64,000 nt of DNA, taken from the IMG/VR virus record IMGVR_UViG_3300002307_000027, positions 51,970 through 115,969 of that record, one strand, 5' to 3'. Both the position numbers and the translations under genes were made by a program. The notes beneath the pieces were generated by a model, which worked only from the letters and a program-made list of their open reading frames with translations, had not been told where the DNA came from and did no database searches. This document shows, one piece after another, positions 3 through 49,472 of this stretch. This DNA comes from a virus. The stretch's first letter is position 1, and each line of letters starts with the position of its first letter.

Positions 3-158
3 TTGAGCCAAGCGTTTATTATCACAGCTATCGAATGGTATGCTAGAGAAGTAATCGCCGCAGGACTTGAAGGGGAAGAAAATAGCTTTATTAACCCAGA
101 AGCGTGGACCGCTACTGCTGAATACGTATTGGGCCAGCTTGACCAGCAGTATGCTTGA
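3..158 (+). CDS. Hypothetical early protein, 5'-truncated by the window edge
   Basis: Open frame LSQAFIITAIEW...QQYA* ending on the TGA of the -35 box at 155. Confidence 0.7.
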   Translation: MSQAFIITAIEWYAREVIAAGLEGEENSFINPEAWTATAEYVLGQLDQQYA

Positions 159-218
159 CAGGCCACTGTAATGTGCTATTATGTATTATAAACACTAGCA
201 GACGAAGGAGCATAGCAA

Positions 219-626
219 ATGGCTACACGTTCAACGATTGGTATCATTGATAATAAGACCGGTGTTGTTACTAGCATCTACTGCCATTGGGATGGCTATC
301 CTGAGAACAACGGACGCATCCTCGTAGAGCATTGGAGTGATGCTGCTAAGATCCACCAGCTTATGTCACTTGGTGCTCTGAGCAGCCTCGGTGAAGAGCT
401 TGGCGAGCAGCACGACTTTAACACTAACAGCCAGAGCTATTGCACCGCCTATGGTCGCGATCGTGGCGAGACACAGGTAGGCTCTATGACACACAATAGC
501 ATTGATGCATGGCTTGAGCATAGCGAGGAGTTTAACTACCTCTGGGATGGTCAGCGTTGGAATTGCTTCCGTGGTTCCAATATCAAAAAGACTGTAGACT
601 TGTATAACCTCAAACAGACTGCTTGA
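219..626 (+). CDS. Conserved phage hypothetical protein (TRSxIG...SIYCHWDGYP family)
   Basis: Promoter repeat plus AGGAG RBS; motif common in phage early proteins. Confidence 0.85.
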   Translation: MATRSTIGIIDNKTGVVTSIYCHWDGYPENNGRILVEHWSDAAKIHQLMSLGALSSLGEELGEQHDFNTNSQSYCTAYGRDRGETQVGSMTHNSIDAWLEHSEEFNYLWDGQRWNCFRGSNIKKTVDLYNLKQTA

Positions 627-708
627 AAGGACAAAGACCCCGCTGTAAGACCGCTTGACAGTCCGTGTAGATGTGCTATTATAAAGCATAAACACAAAGG
701 AGCCGACT

Positions 709-984
709 ATGAAGTTTACTCTTGAGATTTACAAAATGGATCGTCGTACCAAAGAAGGTCAACGCCTCGTTGGCAAGTATGATTACGATCGAGCAGATCG
801 TGCTGCAATGGAACGTGAGATTGCAGAACTGTTTCCTACTTATCGCAAGCGAGACGGATATCTCTTTGAAGTCCGCGAGACTTTTGTCAAGCGGCAGAAT
901 GCAATGACGGGTCAAGAGTTCGAAGAGCGTTATGATACGCCCTATTACGCATCAGCTAGTTCAGAAACCTATTGGAGCGCATAA
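709..984 (+). CDS. Hypothetical early protein (C-terminal TPYYxSxSSETYWS motif)
   Basis: Promoter 655 plus AGGAG RBS. Confidence 0.85.
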   Translation: MKFTLEIYKMDRRTKEGQRLVGKYDYDRADRAAMEREIAELFPTYRKRDGYLFEVRETFVKRQNAMTGQEFEERYDTPYYASASSETYWSA

Positions 985-985
985 A

Positions 986-1273
986 ATGAAGATTTTTTTC
1001 CTAAAAGGACCTAAGGTTACTATTTCCGCAGCTCCAGACGAATGGGAACTGTATAGTGCAGATACTCCAGAACAGGAGCAGGATCGCGACTTTGTCGCCG
1101 AAGCTTTGAATCGTGGTGTTGAAACACTTATTGCCCACGCACCTACTCGAAAAGATGTCAGCTACAAAGACATCGAACTATTGTTGAGTGGATATAGTGC
1201 TTGGGGAGCAGCCGATACAGAAGGGCATTCAATGGTTGATCGTATCTTAACAAAGGTATATGGCGATGAATGA
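986..1273 (+). CDS. Hypothetical protein
   Basis: ATG 986 directly after the upstream stop, with GGAG RBS. Confidence 0.75.
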   Translation: MKIFFLKGPKVTISAAPDEWELYSADTPEQEQDRDFVAEALNRGVETLIAHAPTRKDVSYKDIELLLSGYSAWGAADTEGHSMVDRILTKVYGDE

Positions 1274-1472
1274 TATTGCCATAATGGCTTCAAAACGTAT
1301 CGAACGGGCGATGGCCAACGATAATACCGGAATCTGGGAAACACCGGCTGATATCATTACAGATATCATGCATTGGGCAGATGAGAATGGTAAGATGTTT
1401 GCAGATCTGCTGAATACTGCCCAAAGCTATTACGATTCAGATAAGGTGGAAGAACTAGAAGAAAACCTTTGA
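1266..1472 (+). CDS. Hypothetical acidic protein
   Basis: Overlaps the previous ORF; stop is the TGA in the -35 box at 1469. Confidence 0.7.
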   Translation: MNDIAIMASKRIERAMANDNTGIWETPADIITDIMHWADENGKMFADLLNTAQSYYDSDKVEELEENL

Positions 1473-1526
1473 CAATCCAAAGGTCTGTGCTATACTTAAA
1501 TTATAAACAAAACAGGAGACTAACAG

Positions 1527-1823
1527 ATGGCAGCGAAAACAACGGCTAATTGGTCTCAAGGTAATGTTAAAAACGAGACGGTCCGTAGGGTCGTCCATAC
1601 TTGTGCAAACACACCACTTCCTGAATGGAAGGAAATGGTAAAAACAGAGCTCGAAGGTAGCGAAATTGTTTTTGAATCTATTAAGCCTTTGACACTGCTA
1701 CACGCCTGGGAAATGGGCGACACACCGTATAGCATTTCTTATACCTTAAAGCAAAAACTCAAGCGCCAAAAGAATCAAGCTAGTTTCGTTTCTACTCCAT
1801 ATCCTTCTAGCAATAACAAGTGA
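1527..1823 (+). CDS. Hypothetical protein
   Basis: Promoter 1469 plus AGGAG. Confidence 0.75.
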   Translation: MAAKTTANWSQGNVKNETVRRVVHTCANTPLPEWKEMVKTELEGSEIVFESIKPLTLLHAWEMGDTPYSISYTLKQKLKRQKNQASFVSTPYPSSNNK

Positions 1824-1829
1824 GGTCCT

Positions 1830-2036
1830 ATGGGCTATAAGGTTCTCGGTGAAGCAGACAAGAAGTGGCAACCTCGTAAGGATCTCGAGGGGCCATTCTA
1901 TTACGCCAATGGGCGTGTGCTCTACTACGATCCCAAAGCGGGTGACTATTGGGATCCTACTACAGACTTCTATGTACCGCGTGATGAGATTTGGGAACTG
2001 CAAAAGGACACTATTAAGGTCCTAAGAGGAGAGTGA
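1830..2036 (+). CDS. Conserved phage hypothetical protein (LEGPF...LYYDPKxGxYWD)
   Basis: GAGG RBS; recognisable phage motif. Confidence 0.8.
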   Translation: MGYKVLGEADKKWQPRKDLEGPFYYANGRVLYYDPKAGDYWDPTTDFYVPRDEIWELQKDTIKVLRGE

Positions 2037-2122
2037 TTTGAAAAACTTGCAAAGATAGCCGCTTGACAAGCCACGTAGATATGCTATTATACATTATAGA
2101 CAGTAACGCACAGGAGAACACT

Positions 2123-2356
2123 ATGTCGTTCAAGACCCGTGAATACACTAACAAGGTGCTCGAAGCAGTCAAAGAGGGCATCCTGGATCGTGATATGGTC
2201 ATCATGGCTTGTCTCAAGTATATGAGCGAGAAGGACGTTGAAGATATGTGCGACGTGAACTGCTTCTTCGAACACGAGGAAGAGGAAGAAGAGGATGAAG
2301 AGTGGACTCCGTATAATGCGGACTTCAACGACAAAGGTTCAATCCATCACTATTGA
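2123..2356 (+). CDS. Hypothetical acidic protein
   Basis: Promoter 2063 plus AGGAG; start is ATG 2123, not TTG 2063. Confidence 0.8.
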   Translation: MSFKTREYTNKVLEAVKEGILDRDMVIMACLKYMSEKDVEDMCDVNCFFEHEEEEEEDEEWTPYNADFNDKGSIHHY

Positions 2357-2364
2357 GGTGCATT

Positions 2365-2631
2365 ATGAGCAATGTTCGCTTAGGCAAAAGCACTAAAATC
2401 ACTGCCCTTATGAAGAACAAATACTTTGCCAAAGGGGTAAAGGATTTCCTCTGTGGAAAAGGATTTGATCGTGCTTACGATTTTGATCCTAACTTCCATC
2501 AGTGGAGCTACGAGCGTGGTAGGCAATTTGCCGCCGCTACCAATGGCATGGTCTACAAGTTAGGCACTACAGTTAGCAACCAAGCCGCTGATGAATTCTT
2601 TTCACTCTATGAGCAAAAGGTGATCCTATGA
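2365..2631 (+). CDS. Hypothetical protein (QWSYERGRQFA motif)
   Basis: GAGGT RBS. Confidence 0.75.
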   Translation: MSNVRLGKSTKITALMKNKYFAKGVKDFLCGKGFDRAYDFDPNFHQWSYERGRQFAAATNGMVYKLGTTVSNQAADEFFSLYEQKVIL

Positions 2632-2807
2632 AGTATGACACTTGGAAGTTCGCTGATTTTATCGAAGAAATCATCTATATCTGTGAGATTATCGAAATCC
2701 CAGGCATGAAAGCAAAGCGAGAGGTTATGCTCACAGAAGCTTGGAAGCGATTCCCAAAAGAGTCTGAGGAACTGGGCCTTACACGCCCAGAAGCTATGTG
2801 CTCCTAA
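2628..2807 (+). CDS. Hypothetical protein (59 aa)
   Basis: ATGA overlap, AAGGTG RBS. Confidence 0.65.
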   Translation: MKYDTWKFADFIEEIIYICEIIEIPGMKAKREVMLTEAWKRFPKESEELGLTRPEAMCS

Positions 2808-2987
2808 TGGACTTTTGGGAAGAAAGCCTGAGATATTTCTCTATCTTTGCTTTCTGCCTTGCCCTAGGAGCCACTTGTCCAAAACTTACAGTACGGACTG
2901 CCTGCTTAGAAAATATTGAGCAGTCCAGTTGACTGTCCACTAGTCTATGCTATTATTAACGTATAAGCTAACACAACGGAGAATGAT

Positions 2988-3332
2988 ATGACTGATATCG
3001 AAGCTATCCGCATTGAAATGCTCAACGAAGCTGCTACTGCTGCCAAAGAGCTCTTTAACATAAAAGGCACCGATCATTGGGGTGCTTGTGGGTTTGCTTG
3101 GACTACTATCTATCCCGAGCATAAAGGTAATACTAAAGCTGGTAAAGCTGAACGCAAGATTATTGAACAGCTGGGCTTCAGCAAGGACTGGACCGGAAAG
3201 GCTTACCAACTGTGGGATCCTAGCAACTACGGCGGACAGAATGTTGACATCAAAGAAGCCGGGGCTGTGGCTGCTGCTAACGTGCTCAAGCGTTATGGAT
3301 TTAAGGCCTACGCTGGATCAAGGCTTGATTAA
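2988..3332 (+). CDS. Conserved phage hypothetical protein (GACGFAW...SRLD)
   Basis: Promoter 2929 plus GGAG. Confidence 0.85.
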   Translation: MTDIEAIRIEMLNEAATAAKELFNIKGTDHWGACGFAWTTIYPEHKGNTKAGKAERKIIEQLGFSKDWTGKAYQLWDPSNYGGQNVDIKEAGAVAAANVLKRYGFKAYAGSRLD

Positions 3333-3553
3333 TGGATAAGGTTTATTTACTCGAAGGGCGTGGCTTTGGTGACGCCGATGATGACAACATCTACGGCACC
3401 ATTGAGGTTTATGCCAGCCTCAATGCCGCTATAGATGGGCAGAAGAGTTGGGAGAAACGTATGGGTCTCGCAGCTTGGGAACCCGAAGATGAAGACGAAG
3501 CTATGTCTATAGAGACTTGGTTCCGTATCCAAGAGATGGATCTACTTTATTAG
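3332..3553 (+). CDS. Hypothetical acidic protein
   Basis: TAATG coupling. Confidence 0.7.
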   Translation: MDKVYLLEGRGFGDADDDNIYGTIEVYASLNAAIDGQKSWEKRMGLAAWEPEDEDEAMSIETWFRIQEMDLLY

Positions 3554-3564
3554 GAGGTACTGCA

Positions 3565-3750
3565 ATGAAAGAACTGTTCATCCAACATCACGAGAATCTC
3601 ATAGCCCGTTATTTGGATCTCTATCCTGATAGGGATTATGCAGATGCCTATGAAGCCACTAGCCAAGAGGCATATGATACCCTTGCTGACTATGTAGCTG
3701 ATATGACTGACTATTACGAAGATGCTTACAAAGAAGCCCAATATTCCTAA
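3565..3750 (+). CDS. Hypothetical Asp/Tyr-rich protein
   Basis: AGGAGG RBS. Confidence 0.75.
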   Translation: MKELFIQHHENLIARYLDLYPDRDYADAYEATSQEAYDTLADYVADMTDYYEDAYKEAQYS

Positions 3751-3819
3751 GAACACCACTTGACAGTCCACTGTAATGTGCTATTATGTATTATAAACAC
3801 TAGCACACAGGAGAACGCA

Positions 3820-4002
3820 ATGACCCAGTTGGATCAGCGTATGAATCAAGAGATTGACGCTATGATTGCCAAGCTTGAGGCTATCAAAGCCCAAGAGGGC
3901 AAATACGCAACGAAGGCCCATGCGGTTGAGAAGATTGCCGAGGAAGCCAAGAACTACGCAGACTATTGGAACTACAAACTGGACGATTGGGCCACTGACT
4001 GA
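3820..4002 (+). CDS. Hypothetical protein
   Basis: Promoter 3760 plus AGGAG. Confidence 0.8.
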   Translation: MTQLDQRMNQEIDAMIAKLEAIKAQEGKYATKAHAVEKIAEEAKNYADYWNYKLDDWATD

Positions 4003-4012
4003 GGAGGCTGCT

Positions 4013-4153
4013 ATGGGTGTCAGCGCCAAGAGGGGTATGAGTAGGCATTACTTCGAGGTTGATCCCAAGGCATACGATTATGTGGGCATGGTCATCGAGA
4101 TCGTCTACGATGGCTACACTAGTTGGGTCACACAGGTCCTGATCATTCTGTAG
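4013..4153 (+). CDS. Hypothetical protein (46 aa)
   Basis: GAGGAGG RBS. Confidence 0.65.
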   Translation: MGVSAKRGMSRHYFEVDPKAYDYVGMVIEIVYDGYTSWVTQVLIIL

Positions 4154-4162
4154 GAGGTCAAA

Positions 4163-4375
4163 ATGGAATACGCTAAGACCGATATGTGTCGCACTATTGA
4201 AAAATATGCTAAGAAAGTAGGTTTCCCAGAGATCCGCTGCTATGTCGTTACCCTTGAGGATGGTGTTAAAGAGTATGCCATCTGTGATGATACAGAATGG
4301 CTTTTTGGAAGCCAGAGCGCAGAGGCTATCGCAGTCCATATCGATATGATGGAACTGGCTAAAAAGCAGACTTGA
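4163..4375 (+). CDS. Hypothetical protein
   Basis: AGGAGG RBS; stop inside the -35 box at 4372. Confidence 0.8.
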   Translation: MEYAKTDMCRTIEKYAKKVGFPEIRCYVVTLEDGVKEYAICDDTEWLFGSQSAEAIAVHIDMMELAKKQT

Positions 4376-4432
4376 CAATCCATCTAGATGTGCTATTATG
4401 TATTATAAACACTAGCAGAAGAGGCAAACACA

Positions 4433-4624
4433 ATGTCAAAAGTTGCTCAGTTTCTCTTTAAGCATCCCGCTGTTGATGGCTACACGCTCATCTGTGTATT
4501 GGACGAGATCAGCCGCAGAGTCAAGGTTAGCCCAGATACGCTGTTGAGTGTGGCGCTTGTTGACTCCAAGGCTGCTGACTTCCTCATCCGCACCGTTGCT
4601 AAACTCGAACCCAAGGCTAACTGA
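4433..4624 (+). CDS. Hypothetical protein
   Basis: Promoter 4372 plus GAGG. Confidence 0.75.
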   Translation: MSKVAQFLFKHPAVDGYTLICVLDEISRRVKVSPDTLLSVALVDSKAADFLIRTVAKLEPKAN

Positions 4625-4625
4625 T

Positions 4626-4826
4626 ATGTCTAAGCCACGCATCTTCCGTGCCTGGATCAATCAGCCCAGCACTCTACAGCCACTACATAAACTCCACGGC
4701 ACTAAATGTATCGCGGTGGAGGATCGTCCGGGCAATGTCCGCTTGTATTTCACCGAGGGTGCTGTCCACAGTATGGATGCGGATCCACTATGCGTCAGCG
4801 AAGTCAAACTCAGTTCCGCAGGTTAA
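4626..4826 (+). CDS. Hypothetical protein (WINQPSTLQPLH motif)
   Basis: Coupled start; motif seen in phage proteins. Confidence 0.7.
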   Translation: MSKPRIFRAWINQPSTLQPLHKLHGTKCIAVEDRPGNVRLYFTEGAVHSMDADPLCVSEVKLSSAG

Positions 4827-4831
4827 CTAAT

Positions 4832-5014
4832 ATGTCTAAGGCAAAGTGGAAGACGATCAAGCTGAAACTGGACGAAACAGAGTTGGACACTCTCTTCGTT
4901 GGACTCGAACAGGCCTGTGATGCTACCAGCGACGAGGTGGACTACATCTACTTCCGGAGACTGCTGGCTAAGATCGAGAAGGCCCAGAAGAAACTGATCA
5001 AGGAGGCTGCTTGA
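4832..5014 (+). CDS. Hypothetical protein
   Basis: Tightly packed in the operon. Confidence 0.7.
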   Translation: MSKAKWKTIKLKLDETELDTLFVGLEQACDATSDEVDYIYFRRLLAKIEKAQKKLIKEAA

Positions 5015-5250
5015 TGACTGACAAGACCTTTACCTTTACGATCGAACAGATCAAAGACATCTACCGTGCGGGTATCCGGCGTGGAGAGAATCAGCAATGT
5101 GCCTACGATTGGGGCACTCGTGTTAGTGGTGGCGAGTATGATGAATGTGTGGAGGCTATCCACGATATCGTCAACGAAGGCTTCAAGTGGGGCGATGTTG
5201 GTTATACCCACTACACTGACGTAGAAGATTGGTTCAAGGAGGCCAAGTGA
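5014..5250 (+). CDS. Hypothetical protein
   Basis: AGGAGG RBS, TGATG coupling. Confidence 0.75.
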   Translation: MTDKTFTFTIEQIKDIYRAGIRRGENQQCAYDWGTRVSGGEYDECVEAIHDIVNEGFKWGDVGYTHYTDVEDWFKEAK

Positions 5251-5402
5251 TGGACGAAGCAACCTATAGAGTCCTCGTAGAATGCGTGTATCTGATCTTT
5301 GATTCTACTGAAGGACCCGCCGCAACCGTCCTCACCAAACTGGTTGATCTAATCGTTGCGTATGAGGACGAACACTATCCTATGGATGAGGAGACTGCGT
5401 AA
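5250..5402 (+). CDS. HigA-type antitoxin N-terminal-domain-like mini protein (50 aa, no HTH)
   Basis: MDEATYRVLVECVYLIFDSTEGPAATVLTKLVDLIVAYEDEHYPM matches the HigA-family pattern ExxY...L..L..LIxAYExxHYP; AGGAGG RBS. Confidence 0.6.
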   Translation: MDEATYRVLVECVYLIFDSTEGPAATVLTKLVDLIVAYEDEHYPMDEETA

Positions 5403-5539
5403 TGTTCACTGTTACCTATTCCTATTATGGCACTTACCAGCACGAGAAGACATTCGCTAGTGAGACTGCCGCCAAGAAGTTCTTCTGGTTCATTCAGAAG
5501 AAAACAGGTGTGACTAAGGTGGAATACAGGGCTAGTTGA
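5402..5539 (+). CDS. Hypothetical protein (45 aa)
   Basis: GAGGAG RBS; stop inside the -35 box at 5536. Confidence 0.7.
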   Translation: MFTVTYSYYGTYQHEKTFASETAAKKFFWFIQKKTGVTKVEYRAS

Positions 5540-5593
5540 CAAGCCACGTAGATATGCTATTATAAAGCATAAGATGAGACGCAGGAGCAGGTG

Positions 5594-5773
5594 ATGATAC
5601 GTTTTGAACAAGACCCTCGTGCTGCTATAGAAGAGATCATCCGTGAAGAGGTGCGGGCAGATATACATGGCGATCTTTATAATGTGGATCGTGCTGTGGA
5701 TGCTATCATGTGTTATGTTGATCAGTTGAAGTATGAGATCGAACTCCTCAAGGCTAAGTTGGAGGCTAAGTGA
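5594..5773 (+). CDS. Hypothetical protein
   Basis: Promoter 5536 plus AGGAG. Confidence 0.75.
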   Translation: MIRFEQDPRAAIEEIIREEVRADIHGDLYNVDRAVDAIMCYVDQLKYEIELLKAKLEAK

Positions 5774-5937
5774 TGGATAAGAATAACGAATTCCTAAAGG
5801 CACTGGGTGCTATCGTATTGTCGCTGGGTAGCCTAGTCGCTGGCATTGTCTGTATTGGGTTGGGCACGAACTTGTATATCGCATTGGGCGTGTTCTTCCT
5901 CATCATGTATTACAACTCCACTGGGGGAGATGAGTGA
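5773..5937 (+). CDS. Small membrane protein
   Basis: GGAGG RBS; two hydrophobic stretches. Confidence 0.65.
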   Translation: MDKNNEFLKALGAIVLSLGSLVAGIVCIGLGTNLYIALGVFFLIMYYNSTGGDE

Positions 5938-6176
5938 TGGGCAACTGTAACGACTGTTTGTTTTGGGACAGGAAGTGGATTCATAAAGACGGTGCGGCTC
6001 GCTGTCAGTATGTGGAAGATTATCAATCCTTTGATGAAAATCGCGACTATACCATCGCTGAGGATGATGTCGCTATAGACTACGGTGTGTCCGATGATAG
6101 TGGGCTGTGGATCCATATGGTAACTGGTCCTCGGTTTGGTTGTGTAAAGTTCCGACCCTGTGAAGAGGCTAAGTGA
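5937..6176 (+). CDS. Hypothetical Cys-containing protein (CxxC...FGC)
   Basis: TGATG coupling. Confidence 0.7.
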   Translation: MGNCNDCLFWDRKWIHKDGAARCQYVEDYQSFDENRDYTIAEDDVAIDYGVSDDSGLWIHMVTGPRFGCVKFRPCEEAK

Positions 6177-6235
6177 CACTCTTGACAATCCACTAGGATA
6201 TGTTATTATAACACTATAAGCAATAGGAGATCACT

Positions 6236-6637
6236 ATGAGCGATATCAAGTTTCGATTCCTCTGCGTTGAGATAATCACAGGTGGACCTTGCTCTAAGGC
6301 CAAAGTGATTAGCCAGCGGGTCTACGATAGCAAGTTCTCAACCCTCATAAAGGCCCGTGATGAATTGATACGTGAAGCCCGGACCCAATACACCAAGGAC
6401 TTCTATACACCCGGCGATGATGGTTATGAGCCTGCGAGCGAGGCTATCTCTAAGTTTCCGTTCAAGTACCTCGTAGGCTATTATCACTTGGATGAAGGCC
6501 TTACCTTCCTGTTCCGTGAGGATAGTCCAGTCTTCAATCCTATCGTCGAGGGCAAGATCGCGGGCACCGAGTTGGCAGAACGACTCATTGATATCTTTGA
6601 TTATCATCATGATATGAGCGAAGCTGGGTATGCTTGA
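6236..6637 (+). CDS. Hypothetical protein
   Basis: Promoter 6182 plus AGGAG; stop inside the -35 box at 6634. Confidence 0.8.
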   Translation: MSDIKFRFLCVEIITGGPCSKAKVISQRVYDSKFSTLIKARDELIREARTQYTKDFYTPGDDGYEPASEAISKFPFKYLVGYYHLDEGLTFLFREDSPVFNPIVEGKIAGTELAERLIDIFDYHHDMSEAGYA

Positions 6638-6693
6638 CAAGCCACGTAGATATGCTATTATGTATTATAGACACTAGCACACAGGAGAACAGC

Positions 6694-6933
6694 ATGGTTG
6701 CCAAGCATTGGACTGAGGAAGGTCTCCGCTTTGCCCTCGATTGCCAAGAGCGTCGTTATGCCGCTGCTATGGACTGTAAGGACTACGAACTAGCTGAGCG
6801 GTTGTGGGCTGAACGTGAGAAGACCTGGGCTGAACTCCAAGAACTGGTTAAGGACAATCGTCGAGGATTTGAATGGCATCAAACAATCGACTGGAACAGT
6901 GCCTGGTATGATACGTCCGCTGAACTCAACTGA
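6694..6933 (+). CDS. Hypothetical protein
   Basis: Promoter 6634 plus AGGAG. Confidence 0.8.
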   Translation: MVAKHWTEEGLRFALDCQERRYAAAMDCKDYELAERLWAEREKTWAELQELVKDNRRGFEWHQTIDWNSAWYDTSAELN

Positions 6934-6943
6934 GGAGAATGCA

Positions 6944-7189
6944 ATGACTAAGTTTTATGTCTATGGCGACTATGGTTATACCACTGAACGAGAACTACAT
7001 AGCCAACCCAGCGCAGAATACGCCAAACAGTGGGCTGAAGGCTATACTCGTCATGGCGATATGGGCGGCTATGATGTTATTGAAGTGGGCCACTTCAACG
7101 CCGATGGAGAGTATGTAGTGATCTGGCGTATGGATGCTGAAGACCCTGAGTTTGAGCGTGAGATGCTCTACGAGGATGACGGGGCTTGA
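6944..7189 (+). CDS. Hypothetical protein
   Basis: GAGGAG RBS; stop inside the -35 box at 7186. Confidence 0.8.
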   Translation: MTKFYVYGDYGYTTERELHSQPSAEYAKQWAEGYTRHGDMGGYDVIEVGHFNADGEYVVIWRMDAEDPEFEREMLYEDDGA

Positions 7190-7244
7190 CAAGTCACGCA
7201 GGTGTGCTATTATATAAACATAAACAAACACACAGGAGCACAAT

Positions 7245-12743: not shown

Positions 12744-12887
12744 TGTATATGGTACTCTGCGCCCAGGATGTTGCTAACTTCGCTACACTGAATGAAGCTC
12801 GGGCCTATGCTGAAAAGATCAGCTGGATTGAAAACTTGGCTAGTGAGATCCGCTGCCCAGACGGCAAGCGCATCACAGTCAACGTGA

Positions 12888-13571
12888 ATGAACGTGCCTA
12901 AGAAGCTTGCTATCGCTCTGGGGCTGTTGTGTCTAAGCACTTCAGCCCTAGAGTACCAGAAGACTATCCCCACGATGGTCTCTAGCCTAGTGATAGCAGC
13001 TCCCCCAAAAAACCTGCGTCTAGCCAGAGAGCCCGAGCTTTCGATAGCTATAGACTATTTCGCAGAGCCCACTGTGCCTCCTGTCAGCTTCTTACCTAGG
13101 CCCGCACCAATGGTCCTACCACAGCTTAAAACGGCTGTGACCAAGCCCGTCACGCTCTATGATCGGGTTAGTAGAGCAGCGAAAGCCGCAGGTGTACCTA
13201 CCTTCTTAGCCCACGATATCATTAAACACGAGAGCCGTTATGACACTAAAGCGTTCAACGATGGTGCTTATGGGCTAGGGCAGATCAAATGCGGCACTGC
13301 CCGCGGTGTTGGCTTTAAGGGCAAATGCCGAGAGCTGTTCGATCCAGATATCAATCTAGAATATAGTATGCGATATCTGCGAAAGGCTATGGACAAGGCG
13401 AATGGTGATTTTTGCCACGCTGCCACGCTGTATAACAGAGGCTTTAACACCAAAGCCAAGCATAGCAACTACTGTAAAGCCCTCATAGAAACTATGGGGG
13501 TTTTACCTATCAGTCCTACGCTAGAAAAACAGTTGACAGATGACCTAAAACCTGCTAGAGTCAAGCGATGA
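12888..13571 (+). CDS. Secreted lytic transglycosylase (SLT domain)
   Basis: Signal peptide; HES-RY, GAYGLGQI, DPDINLEYSMRYL and YNRG motifs. Confidence 0.85.
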   Translation: MNVPKKLAIALGLLCLSTSALEYQKTIPTMVSSLVIAAPPKNLRLAREPELSIAIDYFAEPTVPPVSFLPRPAPMVLPQLKTAVTKPVTLYDRVSRAAKAAGVPTFLAHDIIKHESRYDTKAFNDGAYGLGQIKCGTARGVGFKGKCRELFDPDINLEYSMRYLRKAMDKANGDFCHAATLYNRGFNTKAKHSNYCKALIETMGVLPISPTLEKQLTDDLKPARVKR

Positions 13572-16005
13572 TATACACTAAGACCAAAATCATAGAAATG
13601 TATGAGATGGAGTCGTGGTTCATCAAACGTGGTTGGGCTGTGAAAGCCGTTCCCCTGTACACCTATCTAGACAATTTGACACTGGCCCAATGGTCTCTGA
13701 CTCCCAGGCAGGAACTGATATTCCGATTGATGTTCAGCCAAGCGATAGACGACGAGGTGCAGCACAATATCAAAAAGGCCGAGGGTGATCTAATAGCCAT
13801 CCAATTGATAAATTCGCATGGTGGATAAGTGGATGAGCACTAGTCTAGAAAAAGAAAACCTAATAAGGATACTACGCAACGAACGACCCCTGCAGAACTG
13901 GTTCTGTAGACTGGGCTTACATCGTTGGACCCGTTGGGTATATGAACCACGCTCACTAAATGCTGTGACCTTTGATTTAGAAGGTCGAGGAGTCCAATAC
14001 TGCGAATGTGCTCACTGTGGATTCACTCGCATGGAACAGCCCTATTCTAAAACACTATACAAGAAGAAGCGAGACAGTCAATGAAACTATGGAAATATGT
14101 TAAACACTCGGACCTAAGCATCAAGTTCTTCCTGAATCCATTCCATTGGTTCGTCAATCCCTGGGACTGGGACTGCACTACTGAAAGCGAAATGGATCCT
14201 GGACTCATACTATATGCTACCATCAGGTTCCTCTTTGTGCGTATCCACTTACACATAGATGATGGATCATGGTAGACAGACAGCCCACACTAGAGACTCT
14301 AATGGAGAGCCGTGTGGCTTATGAATGGCCCTACTCAGTGCCAGTTGGTCAACACGATGTCAAGAGCATAAGCCATTGGTGTGAAGCCAACTGCCAATTC
14401 CAATGGCGCAGAGACCCCTGGGAACAAACGTGGCTGTTCCAAGACGAGAAAGACGCGATGCTGTTCACACTCAAATGGGGCTATCGTGACCATAGATGAT
14501 CTCATCAAACAGGCAGAACAGTGGCTCGAGTACCACAGAGCCCACAACAACAGGATAGAAGCTGCTGCCACAGCCATACGCATCAGAGCACTGAGAGACT
14601 GCAAGGAGTTAACCAATGGAAGACATTAGATACACCGCCCTAACCCTACTGATAATATGCCTAGCGTTCTCCAGCTGTTCGATCAGCAGTGGCATAGACA
14701 AGCACGGACTGTGCGTGAGCCAATGTGTCACGACCTACAACCGCTAGAGTCCAAGAGAGTCACGTAGTGACTAGAGGTTTTTTAGAGATTTTTCCACCCT
14801 AGATAAGTAAAGTATGCGATGCGAAATAGGCGAAACGATAAAGCGAACAGTCGTGCTAGTGATGGCTTATCTAATGATCATATTAGTAGCAGGGCTCAAA
14901 TGTCTGTGATAGAAAGCCTAGACCGTGTGCTACTGGACATATGGGCAGTGATCGTTGCACTAGTGGCTGTGGCACTGTTATCAGCGTATCTAGCAGTGGT
15001 AGTGATGTTCTTCGCATATCTAATAGTCAAGAGAGCCATCCTAAGAGAACGTGTGACATTCAGGGTCTTAAAATGAAACAGCTATTGGCTTACTGTTGGA
15101 TAGTGTTAAGCATGGTGCTAATGATGCTAGTGAGCGTGAGTAGCCGAGTGCAGAGGATCATACACTAATGAGTAGCAGCCTAGCTTACCTACGACACTTA
15201 TATGCCATACTGGGCTTCGATGAGCTTAGGCAAGCGATAGATGATTATGAACGCTTGCTGCTAAAGGATATACCTGTACCCGATGTAGACTACCATCTAA
15301 GAGAATATGACAGAGGAGACGACGATGCCCAACACCCTACTAGCGATGATCTACCCCACAGTAATGATACAGAGCATATGGCTAATGAACCTAGCCCTAG
15401 TGACCCCGCTGTTGATAAGGACTAGAGATGACTCGCACGCCCACAACTAGACCACTAGCCGACAAGACGGCACCAGCCATACCCGAAGACACTTGCCCCT
15501 ACATAGATATGGTGCTAGAGACTGTAGAGAGGATAAGTGACTGTAGAGATGATCACTGGCGAGCACGACAGGTAGAGCTAGTAGAACACCTAATGGAACA
15601 CATACGAGCAGCCAATCTACAGTTGAGGAACAGCTCAAAGTATTGGCACGATAAGGCTAAACGAAATGCTTAATGAAGAGCAGCCATGCGATATGTGGAT
15701 GAGCCACACCGTGCTTTCAGCTAATCAAAAGGCTATGCTGCGTTCAGTTGGAGTGACAGTGGCTGCTATGGACTCAGTGAAGATCACTATAATGGAAACG
15801 TTCGATGATCGAGGTGAGGCACTGATGCGCTTGGTCACTGGGAATAACGTAGTGACCTTTATGGGACGCAAGAGGATGAGATCAGAATGATCAGAGAATG
15901 GATTGAAGCGTTGGCTATGCAAGTGACACAACTGAGCATATGGATCATCGGCTGCTTCGTAGCGTGGCCCTGCATAAAAGTTTTGATAGCTTGGAGCTTA
16001 GAGTG
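13568..16005 (+). CDS. Run of about 12 small overlapping hypothetical ORFs (e.g. 13568-13828, 13818-14084, 14081-14275, 14269-14499, 15168-15425, 15428-15673, 15666-15890)
   Basis: Head-to-tail overlapping ORFs on the + strand; individual starts are uncertain. Confidence 0.55.
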
Positions 16006-16040
16006 ATTGGTGTTTAGGCATTTGGGACAGGATGGGGAAT

Positions 16041-16071
16041 AATGATATAAACATATCTTTATATCATTTTT
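16041..16071 (+). terminator. AT-rich hairpin, probable (bidirectional) terminator
   Basis: AATGATATAAA-catatc-TTTATATCATT followed by TTT. Confidence 0.55.
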
Positions 16072-16208
16072 GCATAGCCTGTCGTCACCATCACCACTCC
16101 ATCCGCGTCAGCCTTCCTCCACCCTATATCCACCGTCCAAACGGTCCGTTTTCCACTCTCTAGCCCAAAGTCGCCACCTTCTGCCACTGTGGATCAGTTA
16201 TAAATTAC

Positions 16209-16236
16209 ACTATAGCACATCACAATGGCTAGTCAA
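16209..16236 (-). promoter_or_regulatory. Minus-strand copy of the early promoter
   Basis: TTGACT-N16-(tgc)TATAGT, divergent from promoter 16262. Confidence 0.7.
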
Positions 16237-16324
16237 TTGGGTATAGTGGCTAATCTATCCATTGACAACCCACTATAACGTGCTATTATACATTATAAAC
16301 ACTAGCAAACAACGGAGCGTCAAG

Positions 16325-16501
16325 ATGGACAGCCCAGCAAAGCAAGCTATTTTGGAACTGTTGCAGCAAGCGTTTGAGCAGATCAAAACTGTTACTATTG
16401 ATGGACTGACTGCTGAGGACGCGGATGCTGCTGCGGCTTTTGGTGAGATGACTAGCTCAATTGAGCACGCTATGGAAGTCGTTGGTTACTACGCGGACTA
16501 A
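16325..16501 (+). CDS. Hypothetical acidic protein
   Basis: Promoter 16262 plus GGAG. Confidence 0.8.
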   Translation: MDSPAKQAILELLQQAFEQIKTVTIDGLTAEDADAAAAFGEMTSSIEHAMEVVGYYAD

Positions 16502-16511
16502 GGAGCACACT

Positions 16512-16937
16512 ATGCTTAACATTACAAAAGTGACTGATGGCTTTACTGTTACGTTGACTGTTCCGGAAGGTGAACAGTTTATGGAATGTGCTATCGAAAG
16601 CATTGGTATGTTTGTTGCGGCTACAGAGGCGGATTGCCACGGTGATTTGGCTGTAACGTGGAGCACAACAGGACTTGAAAACACGGGTGGCAGTGATATG
16701 GGCTCGCTGCTTATGCGTAATTGGGACGATGCTGTTGGTGCTGTTATGGGTGAGTTTTATTGGAATCAAGGATATAGTGAGCGTTTGCAAGAGCTGCTAA
16801 TGGCTGCGGGCGTTCCGGAGGATGTGGCACTTAGCGTTGGTACTAGTGAGTGGGGTATGCAGGATGAAGGACGGGCAAGCTATGATGCGTTTGAGTTTGC
16901 GGATTGGATCCGAGAACGGGTAGCTGCGATGGCATAA
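16512..16937 (+). CDS. Hypothetical protein (SEWGMQ motif)
   Basis: AAGGAG RBS. Confidence 0.8.
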   Translation: MLNITKVTDGFTVTLTVPEGEQFMECAIESIGMFVAATEADCHGDLAVTWSTTGLENTGGSDMGSLLMRNWDDAVGAVMGEFYWNQGYSERLQELLMAAGVPEDVALSVGTSEWGMQDEGRASYDAFEFADWIRERVAAMA

Positions 16938-16989
16938 GACCCCGCTGTGCTTATACATATAAAGACCCCGCTGTGGCTAGGAGAGACCG

Positions 16990-17193
16990 ATGGCTAATAT
17001 GAGCTACTGCCGATTCGAAAACACCTTTAAGGACCTCTATGACTGCTACCAAGCTGCGCTCAATATGACTGAAGAGCGACTGGCTAATCTCAGTGACAGT
17101 GAGCGATCTTATCTCGAGAGTCTCCGTGAACTCTGTGGTCGCTTCCAAGAAGAAACGGAGTGGTTGGCTAAATTAGATAGAGAAACTGCTTGA
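16990..17193 (+). CDS. Conserved phage hypothetical protein (MxNMSYCRFENT)
   Basis: AGGAG RBS; stop inside the -35 box at 17190. Confidence 0.85.
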   Translation: MANMSYCRFENTFKDLYDCYQAALNMTEERLANLSDSERSYLESLRELCGRFQEETEWLAKLDRETA

Positions 17194-17248
17194 CGGTCCA
17201 GCTGTTAGCTGCTATTATACATTATAAGCTAAACAAACGAGGTACACT

Positions 17249-17473
17249 ATGTCAAACGCTGTTAAGATCGTCCGCGCTTTTGCTAATATCAATGGTGCAA
17301 AAACTGTGTTCAATGATCGGTTGGTCGATGGTACACGTAGCGTTAAAGTTTGGGGTTGGAAGCGTGAGGACTATTATGCAGCAATGGCTTTGCTGCACTC
17401 AGCGGGACTGGGTGGACGGGTCATCCGCGTTAACAACGGTTATAGCCGCGACCAGTACCGGTTGTGGGTCTAA
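17249..17473 (+). CDS. Hypothetical protein
   Basis: Promoter 17190 plus GAGG. Confidence 0.8.
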   Translation: MSNAVKIVRAFANINGAKTVFNDRLVDGTRSVKVWGWKREDYYAAMALLHSAGLGGRVIRVNNGYSRDQYRLWV

Positions 17474-17496
17474 ATATACAGGATAAGTAAAGTTAA

Positions 17497-17573
17497 GGAC
17501 TGGTAGCTCAATTGGTTAGAGCGTCGGACTCATAATCCGCAGGTTCACGGTTCAAGTCCGTGCCGGTCCACCA
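17497..17573 (+). tRNA. tRNA with CAT anticodon (Ile2-type or elongator Met)
   Basis: Cloverleaf with GGACTGG/CCGGTCC acceptor, CTCATAA loop, GTTCAAGTC T arm and encoded CCA; C4:G69 favours Ile2. Confidence 0.92.
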
Positions 17574-17584
17574 ACTACTGCTAT

Positions 17585-17667
17585 GCGGGCGTGGTGAAAT
17601 GGTAGACACAAGAGACTTAAAATCTCTCGCCCACGGCGTGCCGGTTCGAGTCCGGCCGCCCGCACCA
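17585..17667 (+). tRNA. tRNA-Leu(TAA)
   Basis: AGAGA-CTTAAAA-TCTCT anticodon arm, long variable arm, GTTCGAG, CCA end. Confidence 0.95.
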
Positions 17668-17778
17668 AAAGCAAGTTGGGCCCCCTGGAAAGGGTGGGTA
17701 ACGAGAATGTTACAAACGGTTGGTGTGGCGCAAATGCCACACCGTTGCTCAAATGCAACACTGCGCTTTCTGTTACGA
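17668..17778 (-). ncRNA. Candidate four-hairpin small RNA
   Basis: Four consecutive stem-loops with 6-nt loops downstream of a minus-strand promoter (-35 at 17806-17811). Confidence 0.5.
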
Positions 17779-17830
17779 TTTCCAGTATAGCATGCCTGCG
17801 TGGATTGTCAAGCGGATTTCAGGGTTTTTT

Positions 17831-17891
17831 TGGTCCGGACTGCCAGATAGGATTCGCCAACACTCCCGGCTCCCCAGTATCCCTGGACCTC
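17831..17891 (-). ncRNA. Candidate ~60-nt structured small RNA
   Basis: GGTCC...GGACC closing stem with internal hairpins, downstream of a minus-strand promoter (-35 at 17920-17925, -10 at 17898-17903). Confidence 0.4.
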
Positions 17892-18158
17892 AATTATAGT
17901 GTAGCACGCCTGTGCGCTGCGTCTACCTTTTGCCCCAAAAAAGAAGCCCAAAGAAAGTCCAAAAAAGATTGCTGAAACGCTAGACGTGCGCTCTAGAGGT
18001 GCTATTATACATTATAACGAGAGCACAGAGCACTAGCACAAAAACACTAAAAGCGCACAAAAAACACTAGCAAAAAAAAGCGCAAAAAAAGTTGACGTGT
18101 AGTGCAGAGGTGTTATTGTTATTATGTAGGCAACGAAACGCAAACAGGAGCTTTGCAC

Positions 18159-18404
18159 ATGGCTAAGAACTTCACTGTAGTTGGTACTTCCGTCCTCAAC
18201 GGCGCTCTCAAGATGCGCTTTGCAACGGATTTGGTAACCCGCATTAAGGTGCTGGGGCGTAACGGACACGACGCGATTAAGCTGGTTGAGTGCCCTGCGA
18301 TGGGCAAGGTTGATGCGGCTAAGTGGGTTGCGACGCAGGCGGGCTTTGAGGACGAGGCTACGCAGGCGGTGATTGCGGACTACATTAAGCGCAACGAGGC
18401 GTGA
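18159..18404 (+). CDS. Early protein, paralogue of 21580-21828
   Basis: Promoter 18092 plus AGGAG; KMRFAxDLVTRxKVL is shared with the paralogue. Confidence 0.85.
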   Translation: MAKNFTVVGTSVLNGALKMRFATDLVTRIKVLGRNGHDAIKLVECPAMGKVDAAKWVATQAGFEDEATQAVIADYIKRNEA

Positions 18405-18476
18405 GGAATTAAACAGGGCAGCGGTTGACGTGCTGCTGCCCTGTGCTACTATAAGGTATAAGGTAAGGAGCAGGCT

Positions 18477-18632
18477 ATGGTTTACATCGTAACAATCACA
18501 CTCGCAGACGGTCGCAGCCTCATCCAGGGCGTATACGGTAGCAAGGCCCGAGCTGATAAGGAAGCCTCCCGCATACAGGCGACGCTGCAGGACATGCTGG
18601 TCTCGGTTACAGAGACGCAGATCATAGACTAG
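18477..18632 (+). CDS. Hypothetical protein (51 aa)
   Basis: Promoter 18425 plus AAGGAG. Confidence 0.75.
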   Translation: MVYIVTITLADGRSLIQGVYGSKARADKEASRIQATLQDMLVSVTETQIID

Positions 18633-18810
18633 GAATTCGGTGTGGTTACTGGTGACTCCTTGTGGAACCTTCAGAGATTGTGGCAGAATGGCACTGCCGG
18701 TGCAGCACCTACGGAGATGGTAGGAAAGCAGATGAGCAATCATCCAACAGAACAAATGCCAGATATTGGAAGAGTGGTAGGAGTTTAACTCCTACCACGA
18801 CGGCCAATTC
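18633..18810 (+). ncRNA. Candidate ~180-nt multi-stem RNA
   Basis: At least four hairpins, one with a GCAA tetraloop; ends pair as GAATT/AATTC; no RBS-led ORF. Confidence 0.5.
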
Positions 18811-18881
18811 TCTAATGGAGTTAGTTGACAAGCCAACTAGATGTGCTATTATATAAACATAAGCAAACACAGGAGCGCAAG

Positions 18882-19064
18882 ATGCAGGTACAGGGAACAT
18901 TCTGCTTTATCGTTGGGCTGCTGCTCGCGATCGTGGGCGTGGCGGGTGTAGAGCAGAGCCTCACAGACGCGAGTCTGATCACAGGGTTCGTAGTCAGCTT
19001 GGTAGGCTGCGGCGTGCTGGGGTGCGGGGTGCTGATGCTGAATACAGAGACCACCTACGGTTGA
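18882..19064 (+). CDS. Small membrane protein
   Basis: Promoter 18825 plus AGGAG; stop inside the -35 box at 19061. Confidence 0.75.
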   Translation: MQVQGTFCFIVGLLLAIVGVAGVEQSLTDASLITGFVVSLVGCGVLGCGVLMLNTETTYG

Positions 19065-19115
19065 CAGCAGATACAGGCATGCTATTATACGAGTATAGGC
19101 AACGAGGAGCAGAAC

Positions 19116-19298
19116 ATGGGCATCGTAACGAACGCTAAGAAGCTGAACGCTAACATTGCCGCGATGATCGAGGACTACATTGCCGCGAAGGGTGTTACAC
19201 GGGCAGAAGACGTCGCGACTGCTAAAGGCACGAAGCTTCCTAAGACGAAACATGCGGGCAAGGCTTCTTACGGTATGAAGAATAGACGATATGCCTAG
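19116..19298 (+). CDS. Hypothetical basic protein
   Basis: Promoter 19061 plus GAGGAG. Confidence 0.8.
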   Translation: MGIVTNAKKLNANIAAMIEDYIAAKGVTRAEDVATAKGTKLPKTKHAGKASYGMKNRRYA

Positions 19299-19355
19299 GT
19301 TGACGTGCTAAGAGCAGATGCTATTATATACAAGTAGGCAATGAGGAGCAAGACA

Positions 19356-19517
19356 ATGACTGTAGCAGAGCTGATAGCGATACTGTCTCGTTTAGATCCT
19401 GAGCTGCCCGTAGAGATAGCGATGCGGATGGAGTATCAAGAGCCTGTGACTGAGCGTATGGTCACTGTCGAGGAGTATGACGGTAGGCGCTATGTCTGCA
19501 TCAACGACTGCCCTTGA
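19356..19517 (+). CDS. Hypothetical protein (MTVAELIxxL family)
   Basis: Promoter 19300 plus GAGGAG. Confidence 0.8.
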   Translation: MTVAELIAILSRLDPELPVEIAMRMEYQEPVTERMVTVEEYDGRRYVCINDCP

Positions 19518-19577
19518 CAGGTTGACGTGCTATGTAGCGATGCTATTATATACAAGTAGGCAATGAGGAGCACAAAG

Positions 19578-19778
19578 ATGTATAACGCGATGACAGACAC
19601 TGCGATCCGCAAGGCTCTTAAGATGCTCCGTGCAAACCGTGATGCAGCGTCTGCTACACGAGAAGACCGCTTCGAAGCGCAAGAGATGATCAACGGTATG
19701 ATCGATGAGCTGATCCGCAGGAACAACGATCCCTACACTACGGCAGCAGACATCCGCGCTTTTGAAGAGATGGAGTAA
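19578..19778 (+). CDS. Hypothetical protein
   Basis: Promoter 19522 plus GAGGAG. Confidence 0.8.
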   Translation: MYNAMTDTAIRKALKMLRANRDAASATREDRFEAQEMINGMIDELIRRNNDPYTTAADIRAFEEME

Positions 19779-19845
19779 GAGATGACCTTTGAACCCGAAG
19801 CAGTAGCAGAGTTCCTAGCACGTCTCGCAAAGAAAGGTATCGCAA

Positions 19846-20061
19846 ATGAAGGACTTGGGAACGGTAGTGACGGCAGCGATCGGGCTGTTGGTGATAGCGG
19901 TAGGTTTGAGCTTCTTGCTCAGCTGGCCTGTGATGCAGCTGTGGAACGGTTGCCTAGTCCCAGCGGTACACGGTGTGAATGAGATCGGTTGGCTGCAGGC
20001 TTGGGGCATCAGCTGCCTCTGCTCTATCTTGTTCAAGAGCACTATTTCTAACAGCAAGTGA
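19846..20061 (+). CDS. Small membrane protein (LWN...EIGWLQAWGI)
   Basis: Hydrophobic; common phage membrane-protein motif. Confidence 0.75.
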   Translation: MKDLGTVVTAAIGLLVIAVGLSFLLSWPVMQLWNGCLVPAVHGVNEIGWLQAWGISCLCSILFKSTISNSK

Positions 20062-20113
20062 TTGACAGGTAAATATCTTGTGCTATTATGAAGCATAAGA
20101 TGAGGAGCAGACG

Positions 20114-49469: not shown

Positions 49470-49472
49470 ACA

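Follow-up and report, generated by a model that had tools for sequence, protein, structure and literature searches.

A family of promoter units, probably recombining, among the putative immediate-early genes of an uncultured freshwater jumbo myovirus

The 64,000-nt stretch of viral DNA analysed here (the window) carries on its + strand, from 155 to 20113, an array of 26 promoter-leader-RBS units, which starts with a 27th unit 124 nt upstream of the window (position -124). We consider it probable that this is an immediate-early, hyperplastic region in which the promoter units form a recombining family, by a mechanism resembling that of the promoter-early stem-loops (PeSLs) but without the stem-loop, and as one route among several by which genes turn over. 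The source phage is an uncultured freshwater jumbo myovirus of the PA5oct/Rak2-like branch, outside the Tevenvirinae. Its 116-kb contig, 32% complete according to CheckV, encodes DnaB, UvsX, terminase and tail proteins, and by terminase (55% amino acid identity) the nearest cultured relative is Pseudomonas phage PA5oct. The comparisons below rely mainly on L004, a relative with ~80% DNA identity to the window and 65% identity at four-fold degenerate sites; as it is the single close relative, the events are few and cannot be polarised. Four other relatives (L005, L028, L087 and L088) share genes with the window in changed order and on unchanged strands, and each of the distant pairs L005/L088 and L024/L029 shows a unit consensus of its own.

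The units are 52–67 nt long, constitute a dispersed repeat family and share the layout TTGACA-N14-TGCTATTAT, followed by a leader of 23–38 nt, GGAG and the ATG. A search for the strict core TTGAC-N15-GYTAYTAT gave 22 matches in the window against 0.01 expected from shuffled sequences; of these, 21 are + strand matches within 155-20089. The count of 26 takes in the weaker copies at 1469, 12071, 17190, 17981 and 18092, so that the total is ~27 and not the ~32 repeats of the initial annotation. With an agreement of 11/12 to the consensus and the TG motif, the units are, judging by their sequence, near-consensus host sigma-70 promoters of the extended -10 type; we infer promoter activity and early timing of the array from these features and by analogy. 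Conservation sets in sharply with the first T of TTGACA and stops at the ATG, the flanks holding 0.1–0.4 bits per position. The leaders are A/C-rich and unstructured (folding energy -2.0 vs -5.2 kcal/mol, p=1e-8). Upstream of the units, minimum free energies equalled those of controls and terminator-like sites were not in excess, indicating that there is no stem-loop terminator, and the window's units also lack an AT-rich upstream element. The array comprises ~80 small co-oriented ORFs of unknown function (median ~66 aa), each promoter preceding one to five genes with no terminators between such groups. No paralogy was found among these ~80 ORFs, so the units have spread without them.

The TGA inside the -35 box had been described as the stop codon of the preceding ORF at 11 units, and all of them were confirmed: 155..218 (ORF -66..158), 1469..1526 (ORF 1266-1472; -10 TATACT, with a hairpin across the -35), 2929..2987 (ORF 2807-2932; -35 TTGACT), 4372..4432 (ORF 4163-4375), 5536..5593 (ORF 5402-5539), 6634..6693 (ORF 6236-6637), 7186..7244 (ORF 6944-7189), 8708..8741 (ORF 8400-8711; atypical leader), 10561..10619 (ORF 10304-10564), 17190..17248 (ORF 16990-17193; spacer longer by one base) and 19061..19115 (ORF 18882-19064). 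The unit at 10561 precedes an ArfA-family ORF (10620-10748), its predicted downstream gene. The displaced copy was confirmed as well, an orphan TTGACA at 19514..19519 that ends ORF 19356-19517, with the working -35 following 8 nt later at 19522. At the last unit on the + strand, 20062..20113, the -35 TGA closes a 28-aa ORF that is itself doubtful. Nine of the upstream ORFs that stop on the -35 are conserved in L004 with 73–96% amino acid identity and are therefore genes. Other arrangements occur: at 655..708 the upstream stop lies 28 nt before the -35, the unit at 7710..7768 sits within the 3′ end of ORF 7481-7741, whose frame continues across the promoter, and that at 12071..12134 (-10 TAAAAT) within the 3′ end of ORF 11893-12108. 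The latter is the last before a 4.1-kb stretch without promoters. Among the weaker copies, the promoter-like core at 17981..18008 (TAGACG) has no RBS-led ORF directly after it, and the unit at 18092..18158 (TGTTATTGT) precedes ORF 18159-18404.

Clustering of spacers and leaders confirmed that the units are mosaics in which the two parts combine freely, with many four-gamete combinations. The spacer AGCCACGTAGATAT, found at 2063 (unit 2063..2122), 5536 and 6634, goes with a different leader each time, and the spacer CCACTGTAATGT, at 155, 3760 and 9896, with two leaders. The units 19300..19355 and 19522..19577 are indeed near-identical in tandem (91% over 54 nt). Orthologous spacers of the window and L004 are ~74% identical.

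The comparison with L004 yielded several gene-content differences at the units. Two are promoter-to-promoter gene replacements: in the block 8737-9875 the left breakpoint lies at the 8708 unit and L004 homology restarts at the -35 of unit 9896..9957, the right breakpoint, while the segment 19359-19538 ends at unit 19522, the gene after unit 19300 (19356-19517) being swapped for an unrelated one in L004. One deletion between two flanking units concerns L004 18375-18546; there, L004 has two units (18324 and 18529) around an extra 51-aa gene, and the single window unit at 18425..18476 looks, from its sequence, like their recombination product. Two indels involve a promoter only, namely L004 P16324, a second unit one gene on from the window's 16262..16324, and L004 P20140. 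A promoter-plus-gene cassette has moved, window 6631-6933 corresponding to L004 5539-5847 at another place, where the unit with its gene (5542-5847) follows an unrelated 109-aa ORF that ends on the -35 TGA. Furthermore, L004 has another gene and the 6634-type cassette in place of unit 3760..3819 and gene 3820-4002; unit 5536 with gene 5594-5773 is missing there, the same upstream gene ending at the same codon on TAATG; unit 6182..6235 (TGTTATTAT) is not in L004; and units 7186 and 18825..18881 are the right breakpoints of a 1.27-kb indel and of a replaced non-coding segment, respectively. Tandem or duplicated -35 scars are present, and we read the orphan TTGACA at 19514 as such a recombination scar.

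Other events needed no promoter. L004 lacks the segment 4630-5401, the junctions running from ATG to ATG, and it carries an insertion with a probable HNH gene and a further event at 1064-1590. The most variable cassette block in the comparison with L004 and with contigs from other lake samples is 4630..6176 (+ strand), for which the latter contigs showed variants and a two- to fivefold higher depth. Breakpoints fell at promoter-bearing gene boundaries in 11/25 cases, compared with 26/80 boundaries overall, which is not a significant enrichment (p=0.16), and in the promoter-free stretch at 12.9–16.0 kb three events made gene turnover as dense as elsewhere. Logan contigs gave no trustworthy promoter-to-promoter joint, most having sides of <30 nt and lying at repeats. 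Promoter-unit recombination would be one route among several to gene turnover in this region, and not the only one. As to the proposal that breakpoints in relatives would map to the repeats, some do (the replacements, the deletion and the moved cassette), but without significant enrichment; the units are supported as recombination substrates and portable expression signals, whereas the promoter as an integron-like crossover point is not.

In the reading that we favour, the units would together drive the ~80 small unrelated co-oriented ORFs of an immediate-early, hyperplastic region of the jumbo myovirus, and the repeat family would evolve in concert. Between units, unequal or inter-phage homologous recombination, together with short-patch gene conversion, may reshuffle spacers and leaders; such events may also delete or insert the genes that a pair of units encloses, bring in or lose a unit on its own and, now and then, relocate a promoter-plus-gene cassette. 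The phage's own UvsX-type machinery would be the enzyme; a UvsX-like recombinase gene at 35965..37032 (- strand) is the candidate for such short-repeat recombination.

It is unlikely that the units are plain strong early promoters with no role in recombination or shuffling, alike because they were inherited vertically and selected towards the best promoter and leader. The lack of breakpoint enrichment and the equally dense turnover without promoters would agree with this, as would the many orthologous units conserved like their flanks (1469, 10561, 12071 and 17190). Against it, in genomes whose neutral sites are 65% identical the three paralogous spacers at 2063, 5536 and 6634 match at 14/14 positions, yet the first matches its positional L004 orthologue at 8/14; for several units the leaders score 0.90–0.94 to same-genome paralogues vs 0.63–0.68 to positional orthologues; and plain promoters would not account for the four-gamete mosaics, the promoter-only indels, the tandem -35 scars or a deletion that runs exactly from one flanking unit to the other. 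That mosaics and rearrangements are metagenome assembly chimeras at short repeats is hardly credible. Logan contigs do break at units (3776-3797, ~4417, 19321-19346 and 19543-19568), and those covering 4417-6096 are all fragmentary and variant. However, independent samples reproduced the window without one difference over 171-3797, 6096-17665 and 17642-19346, exact repeats reach at most ~30–40 nt, and L004, an independent assembly, has the same architecture.

The stop codon in the -35 had been taken as the sign of an acquisition system, with compaction alone named as the finding that would speak against it; compaction is in fact a sufficient explanation, since its rate of 12/27 units (44%) is similar to that of stop/start overlaps at promoterless junctions (27/53, 51%), where the gap is ≤12 nt in 46/53. 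A stop inside the -35 is the tightest packing possible for a gene end and a promoter, the counterpart of the ATGA and TAATG overlaps that dominate promoterless junctions. As a side effect, a stop within the repeat would survive any crossover within it, and there is some chance, though we doubt it, that the stop was selected for this very reason, keeping the upstream protein intact beyond what packing requires. At 19/27 units the upstream gene shares the frame of the -35 TGA, more often than by chance (binomial p=9e-5), and clade-wide 31 long ORFs reaching the -35 are in the TGA frame vs 13 in the other two; the stop rate is about equally high at conserved junctions and at those differing between the window phage and L004, and the orphan TTGACA at 19514 is still used as a stop. 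This bias exceeds a naive random-frame model, and compaction then needs selection against the other frames; genes in these would need to encode through 30–60 nt of constrained promoter, which by itself biases the frames. Moreover, the rate is down to ~22% in relatives where an AT-rich spacer still precedes the -35, and to 0–1/16 in PA5oct, and so tracks packing density. A dedicated integron-like, site-specific cassette system, with a specialised recombinase, the unit as attachment site and inserted ORFs gaining promoter and stop, is very improbable. The sharp left edge of the unit at exactly TTGACA would fit, as would the unrelated upstream genes (one a probable HNH gene) that end on the -35 TGA at junctions differing between phages, and the changed gene order with kept orientation among relatives. 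But the Pfam integrase and resolvase models, for tyrosine and serine recombinases, matched nothing in the 116-kb contig, no upstream attC-like structure was found, half of the breakpoints lie away from units, and every cassette has its own promoter. Within units, breakpoints are scattered over the -35, spacer, -10 and leader, a pattern of homologous exchange and not of a fixed cleavage site. The integron-like system of the initial annotation is therefore not upheld.

The favoured reading, a recombining promoter-unit family, can be set beside several known systems. Host-takeover modules such as the pre-early and early regions of SPO1 and T5 place many strong host-RNAP promoters and strong RBSs before very small early genes, as the window array appears to do; they are not known to show repeat-mediated shuffling or stop codons within the -35. 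Integrons share with the array small co-oriented accessory ORFs and variable content, but they rely on IntI, attI/attC and one common promoter for promoterless cassettes, whereas here each unit is itself a promoter, no fixed breakpoint site exists and the 116-kb contig yielded no integrase. Transcription in PA5oct relies on the host RNAP, from 32 conserved promoters of the TTGAC/TATAATA type (Lood et al., 2020; PMC7318152). Its consensus-type promoters (16 strict matches) are scattered over 287 kb in AT-rich intergenic DNA, ≤1/16 of them supply the stop of an upstream ORF through the -35 TGA, and, unlike in the window, a dense array, mosaic repeats and cassette exchange are unreported.

The closest parallel is with the PeSLs of the T4-type phages RB49/phi1, T4/PST and KVP40/nt-1 (Arbiol et al., 2010, PMC2839356; Comeau et al., 2014, PMC4122927), for which the integron analogy was already drawn by their authors (PMC2839356). 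The window differs in its phage, a freshwater jumbo of the PA5oct/Rak2-like branch and not one of the Tevenvirinae; in the stem-loop that defines PeSLs, as its units lack an upstream stem-loop terminator; in the upstream gene running into the -35 at 12/27 units, with no AT-rich upstream element; and in a breakpoint enrichment that is not significant. What the two have in common is a set of strong, repeated early promoters of sigma-70-like type that lead into a Shine-Dalgarno sequence and start codon, clustered in hyperplastic regions rich in small ORFans, with ORF insertions, deletions, replacements and displacement between close relatives, with degraded or duplicated -35 scars, and with homologous recombination by the phage's own machinery as the proposed mechanism. 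We regard the array as a variation on a mechanism known from T4-type phages, and not as a new system.

The early-gene array on the + strand carries 26 promoter-leader-RBS units between 155 and 20113, with one more at window position -124; the initial annotation had the coordinates and motifs right, whereas its count of about 32 repeats was slightly high. Each unit (named below by P and the start of its -35 box) consists of TTGACA, 14 nt, the extended -10 TGCTATTAT, a leader of 23-38 nt, GGAG, about 6 nt and ATG. The strict core has 22 matches in the window, where shuffles give 0.01, and a consensus scan returned 11/12 matches with the TG in 18 units. Information content is about zero upstream, amounts to 2 bits from the first T of TTGACA and drops straight after the ATG; this confinement of conservation between -35 and ATG indicates that repeat and expression signal coincide exactly. 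The leaders are significantly unstructured (-2.0 versus -5.2 kcal/mol, p=1e-8). The array ORFs, about 80 as called with our own tiling script, are tiny, co-oriented and mutually unrelated, and the majority have no or an unknown PHROG/Pfam family; as they lack paralogy, tandem duplication of promoter plus gene was ruled out as the source of the repeats.

Further units with this type of promoter point leftwards on the - strand, at 16209-16236, 17784-17811 and 21889-21916. The one at 17811 faces a tRNA-Met/tRNA-Leu pair (17497-17667), and because of these leftward units the called + strand ORF 16032-16163 may be wrong. The motif AAAGACCCCGCTGT, which is not a hairpin, lies just past some gene ends (633-646, 16935-16948 and 16961-16974, the latter two forming a tandem pair at 16935-16974) and is also kept upstream of the orthologous unit in the only close relative, L004, at about 1590-1625. 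Behind P10561, a 42-aa ORF (10620-10748, +), 90% conserved in L004, matches Pfam ArfA, alternative ribosome-rescue factor A, with 42.7 bits (cut-off 25.5). ArfA acts via RF2, which reads UGA, and TGA is the commonest stop in the array (43/81); any tie between the phage ArfA and the TGA-rich stops is speculation.

The window corresponds to bases 51970-115969 of a 115,969-bp IMG/VR viral contig with an estimated completeness of 32% (CheckV). On its minus strand lie genes for helicases (DnaB-like and others), a UvsX-like recombinase (35965-37032), tail proteins and the large terminase. At 55% identity, the terminase is nearer to that of PA5oct, a Pseudomonas jumbo phage of 287 kb, than to those of Rak2/GAP32-type and T4-type phages. 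The G+C content is 45-51%, with positive GC skew, in the array (1-22000) and 33-44% in the replication/structural part (22000-64000). Near-identical DNA was found in freshwater and lake metagenomes. Megablast of 1-20100 and 40000-60000 against INPHARED found no cultured close relative, an IMG/VR scan with the unit pattern gave only 3 single matches, all unrelated, and no further close relative, and a metagenome scan with a 339-aa anchor protein retrieved a single relative at 77%, on a contig of 3 kb, the rest being at most 64% identical; the breakpoint statistics therefore come from one relative, L004. Logan contigs from independent samples match the window order without differences over 171-3797, 6096-17665 and 17642-19346, which argues against assembly chimeras, and show the block 4417-6096 to be heterogeneous in the population. 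Within it, 4670-6003 has a contig depth 2-5 times as high as elsewhere in the array in three lake samples, with variants about 90-95% identical, and is also the block absent from L004; its cassettes seem to be common to one or more abundant related phages.

L004, a 91-kb IMG/VR contig whose anchor protein is 91% identical and whose aligned DNA is about 80% identical, is syntenic with the window over -585..19966 and carries 24 units. Shared genes are 80% identical at the amino acid level, four-fold degenerate sites 65%, and each phage has about 18 genes of its own out of about 75. Several exchanges have their breaks in units. The block 8737-9875 is replaced, with homology breaking in the P8708 spacer and at the P9896 -35, and the gene 19356-19517 (replacement 19359-19538) is exchanged between P19300 and P19522. 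In L004, two units sharing about 25 of 28 nt flank an extra gene of 51 aa (18375-18546), and the window at this site looks like a recombinant of the two. The cassette made of P6634 and 6694-6933 lies in L004 at 5539-5847, in the place of P3760 and 3820-4002, and two units found only in L004 (16324 and 20140) each fit precisely between a stop codon and the next ATG. Tandem -35 hexamers were found in the window at 19514/19522, confirming the orphan TTGACA at 19514, and in L004 at 463/474.

Other exchanges have no unit at their breakpoints. Four genes (4630-5401) were lost or gained ATG-to-ATG with ATGT microhomology, L004 has two extra genes at 1064-1590, and the promoter-free stretch at 12.9-16.0 kb contains three replacements. 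At L004 3019-3519, with the homologue of 1830-2036 on one side and the promoter on the other, a probable HNH endonuclease gene absent from the window is inserted; it likewise ends on the -35 TGA, and its 166-aa product has a visible DHKNGNHLDN...N motif and weak Pfam matches below threshold (HNH/HNH_3, E about 0.006-0.01). Homing is another way in which genes move in this array. In the promoter-free part, an SLT-domain (lytic transglycosylase) protein (12888-13571, +) is 47% identical to its L004 counterpart, its neighbours being 70-90% identical. In place of the non-coding, hairpin-rich segment 18633-18823, L004 has a partly similar one (18745-19036) holding a putative tRNA, read by eye, with anticodon TGT and a CCA end.

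The initial annotation had proposed the promoter itself as the crossover point. Breaks do fall inside units in several of the events against L004, but enrichment is not significant: between the window and L004, 11/25 breakpoints lie at unit-bearing gene boundaries compared with 26/80 boundaries overall (p=0.16), and event density is about 0.75 per kb with or without promoters alike, so that the units are not shown to be preferred. Most Logan contig joints have sides only 23-28 nt long, inside promoter repeats, and are unreliable; the solid ones, 5013->5402 and the replacement 5162->5591, are at or near gene or start-codon edges, outside unit cores, and the joints were counted neither for nor against circles. 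By the comparison with L004, the units appear to serve as crossover points, yet are neither necessary for turnover nor demonstrably preferred.

Some units also resemble other units of their own genome more than their positional orthologues. Spacers of P2063, P5536 and P6634 are identical at 14/14 positions, whereas P2063 matches its orthologue at 8/14; the L004 leaders 753, 3516 and 4381 have mutual identities of 0.90-0.94 against 0.63-0.77 with their positional orthologues; and P19300 and P19522 are nearer to each other than to their orthologues. Orthologous spacers are about 74% identical, near the neutral 65%; as four-fold sites themselves reach only 65%, low orthologous spacer identity was dropped as proof of replacement, and the argument for concerted evolution uses only cases in which paralogues exceed orthologues. 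Many four-gamete combinations link the spacer types with the leader types across an invariant -10, which bears out the mosaics described initially. In the arrays of more distant relatives (L005 and L088, on 325-357-kb contigs, and L024 and L029) the unit consensus is specific to the lineage, and the genes shared with these relatives and with L087 differ in order and always keep the same strand. This is the pattern left when units of one lineage are copied onto one another again and again, and it offers a clean, quantifiable case of concerted evolution in regulatory cassettes, with neutral sites at 65% and paralogous spacers at 100%.

All eleven upstream ORFs initially described as ending on the TGA inside the TTGAC of the next unit do so, and a twelfth case, at 20062, is doubtful; 9 of the ORFs ending in a -35 are conserved in L004 at 73-96% amino acid identity. 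Upstream genes are in frame with the -35 TGA in 19/27 cases in the window (p=9e-5), 11/24 units of L004 have an ORF of at least 41 aa (own gene calls) ending on it, and clade-wide the -35 is reached by 31 long ORFs in the TGA frame and by 13 in the two remaining frames. The pattern therefore exists and is not random. It had been attributed to integron-like shuffling, with compaction alone as the competing explanation, and compaction is judged sufficient. At promoterless junctions, stop and start overlap (ATGA, TAATG, TGATG) in 27/53 and the gap is at most 12 nt in 46/53; TGA sharing, seen at 44% of promoter junctions, is the same phenomenon, as closer gene-promoter packing would require coding through 30-60 nt of constrained sequence, and only two genes (7481-7741 and 11893-12108) encode through a unit. 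The rate falls to about 22% in relatives keeping an AT-rich stretch ahead of the -35 and to 0-1 of 16 in PA5oct, where promoters lie in AT-rich intergenic DNA, and at P5536 the L004 orthologue of the upstream gene, without that promoter, stops at the identical codon on a TAATG overlap. A stop within the repeat survives any crossover in the repeat, which may raise its persistence. A full-text literature search returned nothing relevant on stops inside -35 boxes, which is not proof that the pattern is undescribed; the overlap is a compaction signature for which gene callers and promoter predictors should be prepared. A bolder reading takes the 52-67 nt promoter-leader unit as itself mobile, a minimal 'expression-signal transposon' with a built-in stop for the upstream gene. 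A dedicated mechanism would carry it to further gene boundaries and from one co-infecting jumbo phage to another, and it would not be a passive homologous-recombination substrate. The promoter-only indels at L004 16324 and 20140 hint at it, and we regard it as very improbable.

The promoter-early stem-loops (PeSLs) of T4-type phages combine a strong sigma-70-like promoter with a stem-loop terminator and end in a Shine-Dalgarno sequence and ATG (PMC2839356; PMC4122927). They occur in clusters in hyperplastic regions, are linked to ORF displacement as well as to replacements and indels, and form mini-circles; their authors made an explicit comparison with integrons (Arbiol et al. 2010, PMC2839356; Comeau et al. 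2014, PMC4122927). Mini-circles set aside, the array shares with PeSLs a predicted sigma-70-like promoter (TTGACA-16/17-TATTAT with TG), GGAG at -10 to -7 from the ATG, at which conservation stops, and clustering among non-conserved small ORFs. The stem-loop, in contrast, was not found: the 50 nt upstream of units have an MFE of -8.0 versus -8.4 kcal/mol in controls (p=0.56), terminator-like sites in the array are not in excess (16 against 13.8 expected) and none adjoins a unit, and in 12 units the upstream ORF ends inside the -35. In integrons, attC-type sites bound promoterless cassettes under one Pc promoter, whereas here each unit is itself a promoter. The integron-like system initially proposed is not borne out, as searches with PF00589 and PF00239 found no IntI-type tyrosine recombinase or other match in the 116-kb contig, only about 32% of the genome, and the gene ends of the array have no attC-type site or conserved structured element. 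Given the missing stem-loop and the lack of an integrase or resolvase in the contig, the array was classed as a PeSL-like variant, made of promoter-only cassettes in a new phage lineage, and neither as a PeSL member nor as an integron-like system. A stem-loop is, on this evidence, not needed for recombination and concerted evolution of such repeats, and the array flags about 80 candidate host-takeover or anti-defence ORFans, including the phage ArfA. These findings do not overturn current views; they add an uncultured lineage of freshwater jumbo phages to the T4-type phages, the only ones in which promoter-mediated modular shuffling had been described.
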